Positions 28,422-34,902 of a stretch of 64,000 nt of DNA are shown here, piece by piece. The notes beneath the pieces are model-generated. The model worked only from the letters and a program-made list of their open reading frames with translations. It was not told the origin of the DNA and made no database searches. Position numbers and translations under genes: made by a program. Source of the DNA: a virus; the IMG/VR virus record IMGVR_UViG_3300025921_000002, positions 10,997 through 74,996 of that record. The stretch is one strand, 5' to 3'. Position 1 is the first letter of the stretch, and every line of letters begins with the position of its first letter.

Positions 28422-29779
28422 TGGCAGAGATACAACCAAACTGGAACTCTTATTACAGCCCACAGGCTTACGATACCTTTAAAGGCAATCCCGGCCTCGA
28501 CGACCTTAATAAACGCTATGCCCAAATAGAAAAGGATAGGGAACTTGACAGACAGTTATTAGGTCAGCAAATCTCTAAAATGAACTTTGGTGGCGTTAAG
28601 CCTGCCGACGTGGGTGACCTGCAAAACCAGTACAACGATATTCTAAACGCCTATCAAAAGGCAAGGTCAATCACCGACCCTATGAAACGGGCGCAACTGA
28701 CTATGGAGTTGAGGCAGAAGATGAACGGTCTGCAATATAACGTGGAGAATAAAAAAGAGAACCACAGTCAGGAATTAAAGATGTTCGAGCAAATGAACCA
28801 TCCTAATGCTTTCCCGGCTGACAACGCACAACAATTAGTAGGTGATGTGATAGGTACACCAACCGGAAGCCCCGAATATCAAACAAAATTAGAGGCTTTC
28901 AGAAACGGTTGGCAGGATAAACCTGTTGACTTGGGAAAACTAACAACAACAGCCTTTACTAAAAACCTGACCAAAAGCACCAATTCAGGGCAAGAAATAA
29001 AAGACCCCGCGACAGGACTTTTCAGGAATCAGATTATCAAAACCTCTGATGTTCCAAAAGCCGCTTACACCAACGAGATTGTAAACAGCGCATTAGGCGA
29101 CAAAAGAACACTACATACCATAAGTAAGCTATACCCTGATTTGCCACCTGCACAAGCAGTTACACAATTTGCAAATGATAGTTATGAAGACCAAAAGCGT
29201 AAGTTGATAAGTGACACAACTTATAGCGCACCGCATATGAGTTATGACCAACATTTAGGCTTACAGGAAAATGCTGCAAGGCTTAAATCTAAATACCCAT
29301 CGTTCGGTCAACAGCAAAACCTTACACCAATTTATAGGCAAAAATTAGTTGGTGATATGTTGAATGGTGTGCCGGGAAGTGGCGAAACTTTAGTCAATAA
29401 ACTAAAAGCAGACCCATCCTATCAAAGACCTTTGGGTATTAAGGTAAATGGAGATAATATTCAATTTACAATACCCGATAAATTAAAAAATAAAATAGAT
29501 AGTGATGGAAAACCGTCGTGGCAGGTAGAAGTTCCTACACGGGTTGTTACAATTAATAAAAAAGACCCAAATGCAGATGTTCAGCTTAACGAATTAGTTA
29601 ACCAACTTACAGGCGAAAAAGTTGACATTTCCTCTTTAAGGACACAAGGCGGTAAAAAGCATGTTGCAGTTTCGGTTAGCAGTCAACCTGCAAAAGTAAC
29701 CAGTCAAGACGAATACAATAAAGTACCTAAGGGCACTCAATACATAGCACCTGATGGTAAAATTTATATCAAAAAATAA
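28421..29779 (+). CDS. ejection/cargo protein
   Basis: helical; ends VTSQDEYNKVPKGTQYIAPDGKIYIKK, a motif common in podovirus internal proteins. Confidence 0.6.
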   Translation: MAEIQPNWNSYYSPQAYDTFKGNPGLDDLNKRYAQIEKDRELDRQLLGQQISKMNFGGVKPADVGDLQNQYNDILNAYQKARSITDPMKRAQLTMELRQKMNGLQYNVENKKENHSQELKMFEQMNHPNAFPADNAQQLVGDVIGTPTGSPEYQTKLEAFRNGWQDKPVDLGKLTTTAFTKNLTKSTNSGQEIKDPATGLFRNQIIKTSDVPKAAYTNEIVNSALGDKRTLHTISKLYPDLPPAQAVTQFANDSYEDQKRKLISDTTYSAPHMSYDQHLGLQENAARLKSKYPSFGQQQNLTPIYRQKLVGDMLNGVPGSGETLVNKLKADPSYQRPLGIKVNGDNIQFTIPDKLKNKIDSDGKPSWQVEVPTRVVTINKKDPNADVQLNELVNQLTGEKVDISSLRTQGGKKHVAVSVSSQPAKVTSQDEYNKVPKGTQYIAPDGKIYIKK

Positions 29780-32700: not shown

Positions 32701-34902
32701 TCTGTATTAGCACAACTAAAAATAAAAACCGATAAGGCAATGTCCGATTTCCCCGAAGGAAGTGAGGAACGCGATGCTTTGGCTAAAAAGCAAGCCGACA
32801 TAATAAACCTCATGGAAAAAAAGGGTTATTTAGGCGGTGAATTTAACGGGCAGTTAGCGCATGAATACCAAAACGCTGAATTAGACTTTGCCAATGTTAA
32901 AAGACAAGTTGAGGACTTAACTAAAAAGCCACTTACCGCAGGTCAGGAAAAGAAGATCAAAGAAATTACTTCTGAAAACGAAAAGCTAAAAGCACAATTA
33001 CAGGAAGCCGAAGCTAAGCTAATTGAAGAAACTGACAAGGCTTTTGAATCTGGCAAAGAAGCCGCTAAAACAGAAACCAACGCTGAAAAAGCAAAAAGAA
33101 TAGCTCAAAAACTAAGAGATAATGCCAAGCTAAATAAACCGGGCATTTTTTCTGCGGCAACACCTGCATCTTTAATTTGGGACGGTGCTATTGAAGTAAC
33201 AGCCAAAAGCATTGAAGCAGGCGGTAAACTGGCTGACGCTATTGAAGCAGGTATCAAACATATCAAAGCAAGCGATTGGTATAAAAACCTGCCTGCAAAC
33301 AAGAAAGAACTTGCTGAAAAAGAGTTTAAACGTGTTAATTACGAACATTCAGGCAGTACCGATGTAGAGGACTTGCAGGAAAGGTTTGTTGACAAAACCG
33401 ACAATAAGTTCACCCCCAACGAGGCTAAAGACATTTGGGGCTACATGAAGAAAACCTATATTGAAAATGGCACTTCATATCGGGATGCCCTTTCAAAAAC
33501 AGCCGAAGATTTAGGGCTTTCTTGGAGGCAAGTTAGCGAAGCCGTAACCACGCCAAAGGTCAAAAGAATGTCGGATGAAATGTGGAAACGTCAATCCGAA
33601 TACACCCGAAACAGAACCGCTATTAAGAATTGGATAGATACTCAAACAGCTAATCCTTTTATGAAAGCCCTTAGAAAGGTTTCAGGTGCTTTTAGGGGGT
33701 TGGCTGTATTTGGTCACGGTGGCATATTTGTTGGCACACACGCGGGTACGACAGTATTTAATCCGTCTATGTGGAATAAAACAATACCTGCTTTTTTTAG
33801 AGGTTGGAAGTTTGCCTACGGAAACGAGGGTAATTATCAGCGTTCAATGGAAGAATTAAAAAATTCTCCAAATTATCTTATTGCTCAAAGAGCGGGTTTG
33901 AAAAATAATCCTGAAAGAATAAATACAGAGGAATATCAAAAATCTCAACAATATTTAGGCAGAGCAGGATTAGCCGGAGAAAGAGGATTTAATGCCATAA
34001 AAGTGCTTCGGCAGGACTTATTTGACTATCATTTCAATAAACTGTCACCTGCGGAAAGAGATGACCCGGAAGTAGCTAAGAGCATAGCTAAATTAGTTAA
34101 TTTGGCTACAGGAGCGACTAACTTAAAAATACCATCATGGGTACAAGAAGTTTCATTTGCCGGGGGTATGGAGGGTTCAAGATGGGAAAAGTGGCTAAGA
34201 AGCCCCGCAGAGGCCGCAGATATTGCCATGAAAGCCATATTCACGCCTGACAAAGCAACTACCGAGGAGCGTATTTTTGCAAAAGTATGGGCAAGACGGG
34301 TTGGTGAGCAATTGGCCACATTCAGTGCGCTACTTTTAGCTAATTCTGCTATTCAAAATACTTTAAATCCTAAAAATCCTGTAAATTATACAAACCCCGA
34401 TAAGCCGGACTTTATGAAATTTAAGTTTGGAGATAGGACTATTGACCCAACATCGGGCATGTTAGGTGTAGGAAAGTTTATATATAAAGTAGGTAAATTA
34501 CCATTCCAAAGCGAAAAAGAATTACATGGTGATAAAAAGATTGCCGCTTTAGGTAAGGATTTGCTTCAATACGGTAGAGGAAAACTTGCTCCATTTTATG
34601 GCACGGTAGCCGATGTATTTACAGGAAGGGATTTTAACGGAAACCCGCTACCATATAGTAAGGAAAAACCGGGTAAAGGGCATCATAAATTAGGTTATGG
34701 AGAGTACGCTTTAAGTAAAGCCCCGTTGCCGGGAGCGGAAGCTGCAAATGTTACTTATAAATCAGCCGAAGAACATGGAGCGCATGTCCCTACATTGGAT
34801 GATGTGATAAAAGGATTCTGGTCAGGGGCTATTTCAGGGGCAACAGGATTTAGGGTTGGCGAATACGATGCCAACTCCCCTGAAAATAAAAAGAAAAAAT
34901 AA
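29779..34902 (+). CDS. large internal virion (cargo/ejection) protein, 1707 aa
   Basis: size, position and helical composition; no DxDxD polymerase motif seen. Confidence 0.7.
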   Translation: MGQFSWTPPSTDEPVKKTGWTPPASDIPVVEKKSPVGNASVATSTQSGDGSSPSPLQQSLTNAMKAYSITHTPKEVSDVQNTVSQQKQEDKIARTPDAVVAHEKYMETPLGKTQGAFQYVGSKASKGALQIAKGATWLYNHTSANPIQGMIDEVSNQHKGQEDFFNKADKATNLGLTATDLQNIESNKGIGASALRTAGTFAEIAPTILGGEASGAPKLAFALQGLGQGKETMDAVDPDHKVNPAIRDGFIALNGAFNAALMGDAAETNFAKMPAALRGKISSALAMDAIKQNGEKEITGELVDHTVKDFAHNFYKLGTDYVQKVARTGVDLSALQAATGLAKYGVNKASGQEVFKNPAGETAEGVSNAVLQQAPVFGAAGTVGDLSKLTPYSSFKNEVFENIVKDPSQTDAIKQEIAQHGQERGWTPEEIQATNDHIDQIKTVAQRLPETIKPEKKSDAVQLVLDRDALKKQLANEVGKRGAMDESVKDLPNAHEEWLTDKIEQANDKLRAMATGKRTTYSKGVGDEEGKFFKTTNGEKEEITENRYNLEKLERTANENTNEQEKINNNEKISNQSEQESGVQQTASGEKVAEQPGNPTESVQAIGNGSSENEERLLTTGGEQPPLKAIKNKVDEKNAQDPDFSEKNYDAWEEHRMGLEKQIFHEPIDENLPISENIKLLNKSLEPEFEKIKQVIGDDEVADKYISAIQRNPKRAEKIRNELPKDVQGKLFNRINEDDFEDNKQQTDEFEHLNSESDRDITDEMKFSWIGKKITSPSDMQKPFNRVIVKDLISQLADKGYSQEEIVRRAMQDRVSRGDNAEHVTELVKAVLEEHGKKSEPQQKQIEGGKNATKTGNIEENNQQQHQGTVGQQQGVEENRQHQEEPVAKSQTETGGSNSIEQGGQVKKTILTKRAYEGEIQLEVKKHLEEKGLTRKSFSQEERSKQATDFINKFGEEAAQKAVEAGDIDGGMAASVLAQLKIKTDKAMSDFPEGSEERDALAKKQADIINLMEKKGYLGGEFNGQLAHEYQNAELDFANVKRQVEDLTKKPLTAGQEKKIKEITSENEKLKAQLQEAEAKLIEETDKAFESGKEAAKTETNAEKAKRIAQKLRDNAKLNKPGIFSAATPASLIWDGAIEVTAKSIEAGGKLADAIEAGIKHIKASDWYKNLPANKKELAEKEFKRVNYEHSGSTDVEDLQERFVDKTDNKFTPNEAKDIWGYMKKTYIENGTSYRDALSKTAEDLGLSWRQVSEAVTTPKVKRMSDEMWKRQSEYTRNRTAIKNWIDTQTANPFMKALRKVSGAFRGLAVFGHGGIFVGTHAGTTVFNPSMWNKTIPAFFRGWKFAYGNEGNYQRSMEELKNSPNYLIAQRAGLKNNPERINTEEYQKSQQYLGRAGLAGERGFNAIKVLRQDLFDYHFNKLSPAERDDPEVAKSIAKLVNLATGATNLKIPSWVQEVSFAGGMEGSRWEKWLRSPAEAADIAMKAIFTPDKATTEERIFAKVWARRVGEQLATFSALLLANSAIQNTLNPKNPVNYTNPDKPDFMKFKFGDRTIDPTSGMLGVGKFIYKVGKLPFQSEKELHGDKKIAALGKDLLQYGRGKLAPFYGTVADVFTGRDFNGNPLPYSKEKPGKGHHKLGYGEYALSKAPLPGAEAANVTYKSAEEHGAHVPTLDDVIKGFWSGAISGATGFRVGEYDANSPENKKKK
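29870..29963 (+). other. candidate -1 frameshift/slippage site (A9) and transframe peptide
   Basis: GAA AAA AAA AGT; the -1 frame is closed by TGA at 29868-70 and then reads KKKSSWQRFCGYLNAVWRWLKSFPSPTKSY to TAA 29963. Confidence 0.5.
31487..31633 (+). CDS. nested +1-frame small basic protein (48 aa)
   Basis: MKKSATKANKKAVFSKPPAGKKWQNSPATPPKASKPSATVVAKMKKGC; A-rich start context. Confidence 0.55.
   Translation: MKKSATKANKKAVFSKPPAGKKWQNSPATPPKASKPSATVVAKMKKGC
32330..32512 (+). CDS. nested +1-frame small basic protein (MPLK...QAVAIALS type)
   Basis: MPLKPGTSKKTISSNIKEL...QKQAVAIALSKAAKSKK resembles a widespread stand-alone phage microprotein; GGAGGTAAAAATG start context. Confidence 0.75.
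   Translation: MPLKPGTSKKTISSNIKELLDSNRGSKKIGNTKKNLSLKAKQKQAVAIALSKAAKSKKQS

Follow-up and report, generated by a model that had tools for sequence, protein, structure and literature searches.

The gene for a giant 1707-residue protein in the virus of IMG/VR record IMGVR_UViG_3300025921_000002 is a genuine gene that, in what we consider the probable reading, encloses two further coding units: a 60-codon gene in its +1 frame (ORF-B; ORF, open reading frame) and a conserved tail in its −1 frame that begins at a run of nine A residues (A9). A third alternative-frame signal, ORF-A, is on this reading a by-product of composition. What is established, and what the reading draws on, is homology, recoding, conservation specific to the frame, and the recurrence of the layout in further phages. 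The stretch analysed, here called the window, comprises 64,000 nucleotides (positions 10,997 to 74,996) and makes up most of the 74,996-bp record, which is rated 100% complete; rhizosphere metagenomes contain the phage. A first-pass annotation of the window had pointed to three alternative-frame features within this gene, each in a region where the main frame degenerates. All three are indeed present, and all lie in polar, low-complexity main-frame sequence, ORF-A and ORF-B in a linker and the −1 tail in an S/G/P-rich N-terminal stretch. The giant protein has 91 homologues, 1000–2900 aa in length, and an alignment divides it into an N module, the linker and a C module. The features, in window coordinates, are as follows.

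29779–34902, + strand: giant gene, 1707 aa (P0001); an ORF call with 91 homologues and a conservation map
aa ~100–556: conserved N module, from the alignment
aa ~560–905 (nt ~31456–32493): hypervariable, indel-rich polar linker, from the alignment
aa 906–1707: strongly conserved C module, opening with VKKTILT, from the alignment
29779–29869, + strand: N-terminal segment common to the full-length protein and a proposed short isoform, from homologue N-termini
29870–29878, + strand: A9 run, an in-frame A_AAA_AAA heptamer at codons 31–33; homologues have equivalent runs
29871–29963, + strand: −1 tail, about 28 aa after three Lys codons, with a TAA stop; matched by conserved tails
31487–31633, + strand: ORF-A, 48 aa, +1 frame, Lys/Ala/Pro-rich; unsupported as a gene
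32318–32325, + strand: AAGGAGGT, a Shine-Dalgarno-like motif, 4 nt upstream of the ORF-B ATG and followed by AAAA
32330–32512, + strand: ORF-B, 60 aa, +1 frame, embedded; member of the phrog_2423 family

ORF-B and a second family of embedded genes

On the comparisons given here, ORF-B is a bona fide member, over its full length, of a family of small basic proteins that is widespread and that we call family 1. It matched phrog_2423 with E = 1.8e-10 in a PHROG search, and phmmer against 1.8 billion representatives returned 77 relatives with E < 1e-3, the closest of which are 57–60 aa long, 63–66% identical and aligned end to end over residues 1–59. A family hidden Markov model (HMM) built without ORF-B recovered it with E = 6e-27 over profile positions 1–58, and the score of 92.4 bits ranks it 16th among 80 family copies. 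All invariant or near-invariant residues (M1, P2, L3, K4, G6, S8, N15, I16, G30, A47 and A49) are retained. AlphaFold2, supplied with the family alignment, predicted a two-helix hairpin (pLDDT 83), and a search of BFVD matched this model (probability 1.0, 39–46% identity) to small proteins, as yet uncharacterised, that are encoded by Ralstonia and Burkholderia phages in culture. Neither Foldseek on the PDB nor an HMM search of PDB sequences returned anything, and blastn and tblastn of the phage collection gave no match, a result in which the BLAST low-complexity filter may have masked ORF-B. Pfam DUF6496 is touched by 6 of 30 family members.

At least 256 relatives of ORF-B occur in IMG/VR, and most of these family-1 copies are stand-alone ORFs adjoining portal genes. 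In one locus (L090:567–1910) residues 1–43 of the domain form the N-terminus of a head maturation protease (phrog_3778, E = 3e-117). In three others (L048, L079 and L084) the domain is fused to extensions of 200–320 aa that belong to no known family. ORF-B departs from the stand-alone placement in the head module in being embedded in the giant gene. It is the only family copy in its complete genome; G000 and G002, both complete, have no copy beyond the embedded one.

The DNA of ORF-B is read in two frames, and both bear the marks of this. Its stop codon overlaps the opening codons of the conserved C module. As a comparison set we took 73 stand-alone family-1 copies, in which the frame equivalent to that of the giant gene was scored per 58 codons; here stops number 4.6 on average, only 6.8% of the copies are stop-free and T stands at 23% of third codon positions. 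In the embedded copies (ORF-B and those of L004 and L024), by contrast, the giant-equivalent frame has no stops and third-position T falls to 0–1.7%, ORF-B itself having none. L004 is a homologous giant gene with the family-1 gene at a different spot in its linker. L024 (1795–4177) is a distinct ORF of at least 794 aa, again with a family-1 gene in its +1 frame; it shows no detectable likeness to P0001 outside the overlap, and its contig runs no further than the small gene's stop. Identity among the embedded copies is 0.49–0.52 in the small frame vs. 0.23–0.34 in the giant frame, and their differences peak at the third codon position of the small gene. A main-frame "shadow" of ORF-B, 57 aa long, can moreover be recognised in P0066 within an otherwise unalignable linker. 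At the window locus, selection on both frames is shown by the avoidance of stops and the loss of third-position T. Judged by these patterns, the overlap is maintained and not accidental.

The expectation of the first-pass annotation that the alternative frame carries the constraint is thus borne out at ORF-B, a recoded family member whose small frame is better conserved than the giant one. Its term "overprinted", on the other hand, has the direction wrong: since the small gene comes from a family that already existed as stand-alone genes, the linker of the giant gene is the younger reading of this DNA.

As to expression signals, GGAG or GAGG stands upstream of the embedded copies in L003 and L004 as well. 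Among 40 window genes of at least 150 aa, a Shine-Dalgarno-like motif precedes only 4 start codons, against a background of 8%. This scarcity fits a host that is probably of Bacteroidota type, in which the A-rich context upstream of ORF-B may be what counts. The perfect AAGGAGGT before ORF-B stands out against the other starts of the phage. The available metatranscriptome contigs leave ORF-B uncovered and have no bearing on its expression.

A second, unrelated small family occurs in the same setting. At L003, a sister of L004, a different small ORF occupies the same site behind the same upstream GGAG motif and with the same ATG. When the two stretches (L003:5699–5900 and L004:1164–1410) are compared, flanks, GGAG and ATG are shared and only the small-gene body differs, being of family 2 in the one and family 1 in the other, until the DNA re-converges in the common C-terminal tail AAKMHSQKK. 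The difference looks like an in-place swap of a cassette with both frames kept open. Family 2 (consensus start MPFKSQAQR) has 120 homologues, and its HMM matches the embedded copies of L003 and L009 with E = 1.6e-24 and E = 3.3e-20, respectively; in G001 a family-2 copy is present only in embedded form. Among the 80 best family-2 loci of IMG/VR, 27 lie in the +1 frame of ORFs of 1400–2450 or more codons, and these giant ORFs belong to several unrelated families. Searches of four of them against Pfam and the PHROGs gave little, with one match to a DarB-like PHROG. The arrangement of a small ORF lying wholly within a larger ORF of the same strand, in another frame, is therefore found not only in the window but also in L004, L024, L003, L009 and these 27 loci.

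Twenty embedded family-2 copies were inspected for upstream motifs, and 14 have GGAG or GAGG within 18 nt of the ATG. Selection on the embedded frame was assessed from the phase of substitutions in ten pairs of related giant genes hosting family 2. Differences at the wobble position of the giant frame, 0.36–0.50 per site gene-wide, drop to 0–0.08 inside the embedded ORF, where changes shift to giant-frame position 1, which is the wobble position of the small gene. Suppression of this kind, combined with the switch of phase, is what purifying selection on an embedded frame classically leaves behind. The suppressed synonymous variation that the first-pass annotation had proposed to look for among homologues was seen here for the embedded family-2 genes. 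A small family-2-like ORF is also found in L186 at 3001–3081 (HQ332139.1:6954–7034, the cultured cyanophage Prochlorococcus phage P-RSP2), where that strand has no annotated gene. No PHROG or Pfam family was matched by the +1 linker ORFs of L005, L007, L010 and L011; two of them, L005:3591–3752 (53 aa) and L010:4307–4513 (68 aa), have the motif YN-x-PKMT in common and could represent a third embedded family or merely shared ancestry of the DNA.

The A9 run and the −1 tail

The segment that precedes the A9 run has the W-x-P-P-x-x-D repeat twice and a conserved KK(K) at its end; in nearly all homologue N-termini a KK(K) is followed by low-complexity sequence. Immediately before the run the −1 frame has a TGA (29868–29870), and the −1 tail has no start codon of its own; it is rich in aromatic and basic residues around the core VWRWLKSFP. 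In all four other homologues for which N-terminal DNA was available, an in-frame run of A7–A10 (A10 in L009, A9 in L100, A7 in L003 and A7 in L010) stands directly after KK(K), 24–88 codons into the gene. In each of the five sequences the −1 frame upstream of the run contains a stop or lacks an ATG, and a tail of 17–51 aa follows. The tails have a common pattern, W[LF][KR]x[FY]P...Y-stop, which is also present in a sixth sequence, L181, whose 5' end is missing; L181 was the sole addition from two DNA-pattern scans for the motif.

The likeness of the tails was compared with a null in which the main-frame protein was kept and its codons were resampled 1000 times. Between the window and L010, the −1 tails scored 66, as opposed to 10.4 ± 4.5 in the null (maximum 30 in 1000) and 23 for the main frame of the same DNA; between the window and L003, they scored 55, as opposed to 13.9 ± 5.5 and 38. 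The window and L010 retain the core as VWRWL[KR]xFP, whereas the main frame reads SGDGSSPSP in the one and SGGGLESSL in the other, and 5 of the 8 differences in the core fall at third positions of −1 codons. At the A9 site, then, the alternative frame does carry the constraint, as had been anticipated: run and −1 peptide have both been conserved, most substitutions being synonymous in the −1 frame. Hairpins of 6–7 GC-rich base pairs were found 3–4 nt past both A7 runs and after neither the A9 runs nor the A10 run. Two other readings of this region, a +1 tail after the A9 run (a TTG-initiated ORF, 29867–29971) and a 71-aa antisense ORF (29769–29984) whose peptide is poorly conserved, were considered and set aside.

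Chance, ORF-A and competing readings

The giant gene is purine-rich and T-poor, and for this reason all three signals might be regarded as shadows of its composition: polar linkers rich in Lys and Glu leave the +1 frame open and basic, and AAA codons for Lys give runs of A. Synonymous-codon shuffles of the giant gene, with protein and codon usage kept, indeed yield +1 ORFs that are equally numerous, long and basic, and the A9 run as well. The longest +1 ORF with an ATG has 60 codons as against a mean of 61 in the shuffles (P = 0.51), and the second longest is equally ordinary (P = 0.52); stop-free +1 runs of at least 45 codons occur about 4.7 times per shuffle, and 5 runs of at least 48 are observed. 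The K+R content is equalled or exceeded in 14–16% of +1 runs in the null, so that basic +1 peptides are the rule. An A run of at least nine arises in 78% of the shuffles (P = 0.78), and a −1 tail of at least 28 codons after an A6 heptamer in 26% (P = 0.26). In addition, +1 stops require T at position 2 of the main frame, and the residues F, L, I, M and V make up 13–14% of these stretches vs. 21% gene-wide. Aligned +1 frames in the first homologous loci compared were broken or unrelated. Composition cannot, however, explain the end-to-end match of ORF-B to a stand-alone family (E = 6e-27), nor −1 tails conserved above the main frame of the same DNA. Comparison across sequences places ORF-B and the A9/−1 tail far beyond chance, and not ORF-A. 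As an account of all three signals composition is very improbable; it is refuted for ORF-B and the −1 tail and is the best reading for ORF-A and for two other +1 runs, 33212–33367 and 33686–33859, which contain stops in every homologue compared. The standard single-genome codon-shuffle test, it should be kept in mind, rated these real signals as pure chance.

For ORF-A, the constraint that the first-pass annotation had ascribed to the alternative frame did not materialise: no relatives were found, and the +1 frame is not conserved across five homologues (L003, L004, L005, L010 and L011). No match was obtained in the PHROGs or Pfam at E ≤ 10, no relative was found in the word-indexed 5.8-billion search or among viral contigs, and recognition in the Atlas was low. 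The possibility that ORF-A is a relic of family 2 was tried and rejected, since its likeness to family-2 cores is not significant (P = 0.11–0.15). The same result bears on the proposal, which we regard as rather improbable, that ORF-A is a third embedded gene, either derived from family 2 with strong divergence or belonging to an undescribed K/P/A-rich family. This proposal draws some strength from L100, which has a true family-2 gene at the relative place of ORF-A, from a +1 likeness to the K-rich linker ORFs of L005 and L009 that lies 3–4.5 standard deviations above a synonymous-resampling null, from the recurrence of the main-frame motif VAEQPGNPTE in P0002, P0005 and P0019, and from contigs over 31471–31702 in both metatranscriptomes. 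Against it, all the database searches were empty, L005 retains the AEQP motif in the main frame with a different +1 reading, and scores in these comparisons are inflated by Lys-rich composition, so that the likeness to L005 and L009 may itself be compositional.

Two further alternatives accept the conservation and dispute translation. ORF-B could be a captured passenger, a head-module gene recombined into a tolerant linker, where it would be unexpressed and intact through recency or through the constraint of the giant frame. The linker is a hot spot of recombination, as the swap of exactly the small-gene body between L003 and L004 illustrates, possible relics exist in some homologues (L011, E = 1.1 against family 2), and the host probably does not use Shine-Dalgarno motifs. 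ORF-B is nevertheless only 63–66% identical to its nearest relatives and has kept its start, its stop and every invariant residue; its HMM score lies in the upper quarter of the family, it is the sole family copy in a complete genome, and for the embedded genes of family 2, an analogous case, purifying selection on their own frame is demonstrable. The complete removal of third-position T moreover indicates long co-adaptation, not recent arrival, and we consider a silent passenger quite improbable. The conserved −1 reading, for its part, could be untranslated and reflect a constraint on the nucleic acid itself, such as an RNA structure or a signal for packaging or regulation, or on an antisense product. 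The frame of the antisense ORF mentioned above is open in the same phase, support for a shift at the A9 run comes from sequence comparison, and short GC hairpins follow the A7 runs. The conservation is nonetheless of the kind seen in amino-acid sequences: aromatic and basic positions survive codon changes, and differences concentrate at third positions of −1 codons. The antisense peptide is poorly conserved and the remaining antisense frames contain stops, while the tail always starts at a slippery run that lies in frame, behind upstream sequence that contains a stop or lacks an ATG, and ends within 17–51 codons. This explanation is unlikely, without being far-fetched.

Several points nevertheless weigh against the reading of ORF-B and the −1 tail as coding units inside the giant gene. 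We infer from sequence the translation of both extra products, the initiation and the shifting that would produce them, and any function. The single-sequence statistics are wholly compatible with chance for all three signals. The frameshift case is built on just five or six sequences, one of which (L100) has an early stop in its tail; z-scores revealed no significant stimulatory structure downstream of the runs, a result that also weighs against a structural constraint. In metatranscriptome X4 (window 29717–30055) one contig stops and another starts precisely at the A9 run, which a DNA run of comparable depth (X3) reads through; as these are assembled contigs from one metatranscriptome, the break is a weak hint only. 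AAGGAGGT may be a relic of the cassette that is not used by the host, because the phage's own genes are without Shine-Dalgarno motifs. Among the relatives with DNA compared, no close relative of the window phage carries ORF-B, and the family-1 and family-2 HMMs recognised no embedded small gene in L005, L007, L010 and L011, so that the small gene is dispensable or replaceable.

The giant protein, proposed products and known systems

P0001 itself has no Pfam domain, and searches of Pfam, the PHROGs and PDB sequences gave no match; blastn and tblastn of the phage collection found no match for the gene, and there was no relative among the genome contigs searched. The variable middle of the homologues, in contrast, holds several conflict-related enzymatic domains (ART-PolyVal, InPase, LPD3, Kinase-PolyVal and His_Phos_1), by which the family is to be classed with the polyvalent proteins (Iyer et al., PMC5512222). 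Divergence within the N-module alignment was too great for its use in a locus search. The giant protein is probably delivered with the virion, as a protein of the polyvalent type; the label "cargo" has as its sole basis the position of the gene and a sub-threshold match to crAss_MUZ_C (E = 6e-4), a muzzle domain, in the nearby ORF 26444–27337. A 1295-aa neighbour of the giant protein had no match among PDB sequences. Directly past the stop of the giant gene, on the opposite strand, lies an HNH endonuclease gene (34903–35463, − strand; PHROG E = 1e-26). In L009 (3686–4411), and also in L012 and L013, a free-standing gene for a 241-aa endonuclease, which resembles GIY-YIG by eye only, splits the giant gene; the halves in L009 are an 831-aa N gene and an 897-aa C gene, near whose start the family-2 gene is embedded, and L181 is an unsplit relative.

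We propose that the giant mRNA would give rise to three products, namely the full-length protein, a basic hairpin protein of 60 aa and a short isoform of about 61 aa. ORF-B would most likely be translated by internal initiation at its own ATG on this mRNA, and its synthesis would thereby be coupled to production of the cargo protein. The linker would read the same DNA one base out of phase, the small gene having been recoded so as to leave the giant frame free of stops. At the A9 run a fraction of ribosomes (by a −1 slip on A_AAA_AAA) or of transcripts (by one extra A) would enter the −1 frame, and the resulting isoform would consist of the shared 33-aa N-terminus and the conserved 28-aa aromatic/basic tail. 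The linkage of family 1 to portal genes and the prohead protease, and its embedding in genes of giant ejected proteins, suggest a plausible role for ORF-B as a small partner protein when the cargo is packaged or ejected. Of a wider proposal we are evenly persuaded and doubtful: that the giant cargo or polyvalent genes of many environmental phages may be carrier loci for exchangeable embedded small genes, in which at least two unrelated basic head-module families are swapped as cassettes with both frames kept open, here with a short isoform by slippage in addition, and that such a gene would amount to a small operon within one ORF, coupling the synthesis of small partners in packaging or ejection to that of the cargo.

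The place and the history are unexpected, with widespread families of small genes engulfed by the linkers of giant virion proteins, recoded and exchanged between sister phages. As the layout recurs in dozens of unrelated giant ORFs, gene callers probably miss a class of phage proteins systematically. For two large families of "hypothetical" proteins, their ties to the head module and to giant proteins that are ejected provide a lead on function.

ORF-B is like the phrog_2423/DUF6496-like proteins in its match from first to last residue, its conserved residues and its predicted helical hairpin; it differs from them in standing outside the head module, in being embedded and in a codon usage reshaped by the overlap. 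In dnaX, the tau and gamma products arise by −1 ribosomal frameshifting at A_AAA_AAG in E. coli and by transcriptional slippage on an A run in Thermus. The A9 site is alike in that an in-frame, A-rich slippery run would lead to a truncated isoform with a short new-frame tail and a stop, and unlike it in that the site lies just 24–88 codons into the gene, that the tail is a conserved peptide of 17–51 aa, and that the shift is predicted and no significant stimulatory structure was found.

The Rz/Rz1 spanins of phage lambda and its relatives likewise comprise a small gene wholly inside a larger one, in the +1 frame and with a separate start, and one mRNA presumably serves for both products (PMC6139136). 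Here, in contrast, the host gene encodes a giant virion or polyvalent protein, the embedded family is mostly stand-alone with the host linker as the younger reading, and sister phages have small genes of two unrelated families at the same site. Polyvalent proteins (Iyer et al. 2017, PMC5512222) and the DarB-like antirestriction proteins of P1 are similarly giant, with variable enzymatic modules, and one giant ORF that hosts family 2 matches a DarB-like PHROG, whereas P0001 has no recognised enzymatic domain; embedded or overlapping genes go unmentioned in the text of PMC5512222. De novo overprinting in viruses (PMC8227390) also yields two proteins from one stretch of DNA in different frames. 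In the present case, however, the small gene is the older one, and the host ORF engulfed an existing gene without the birth of a new ORF. Our literature searches found no description of such embedding. Embedded genes (Rz/Rz1) and slippery-run isoforms (dnaX) are in themselves already known; what is new is the giant polyvalent host gene, the engulfment of an old small gene by the younger frame of a linker, the exchange of cassettes of two families at one site, and the wide recurrence of the arrangement.

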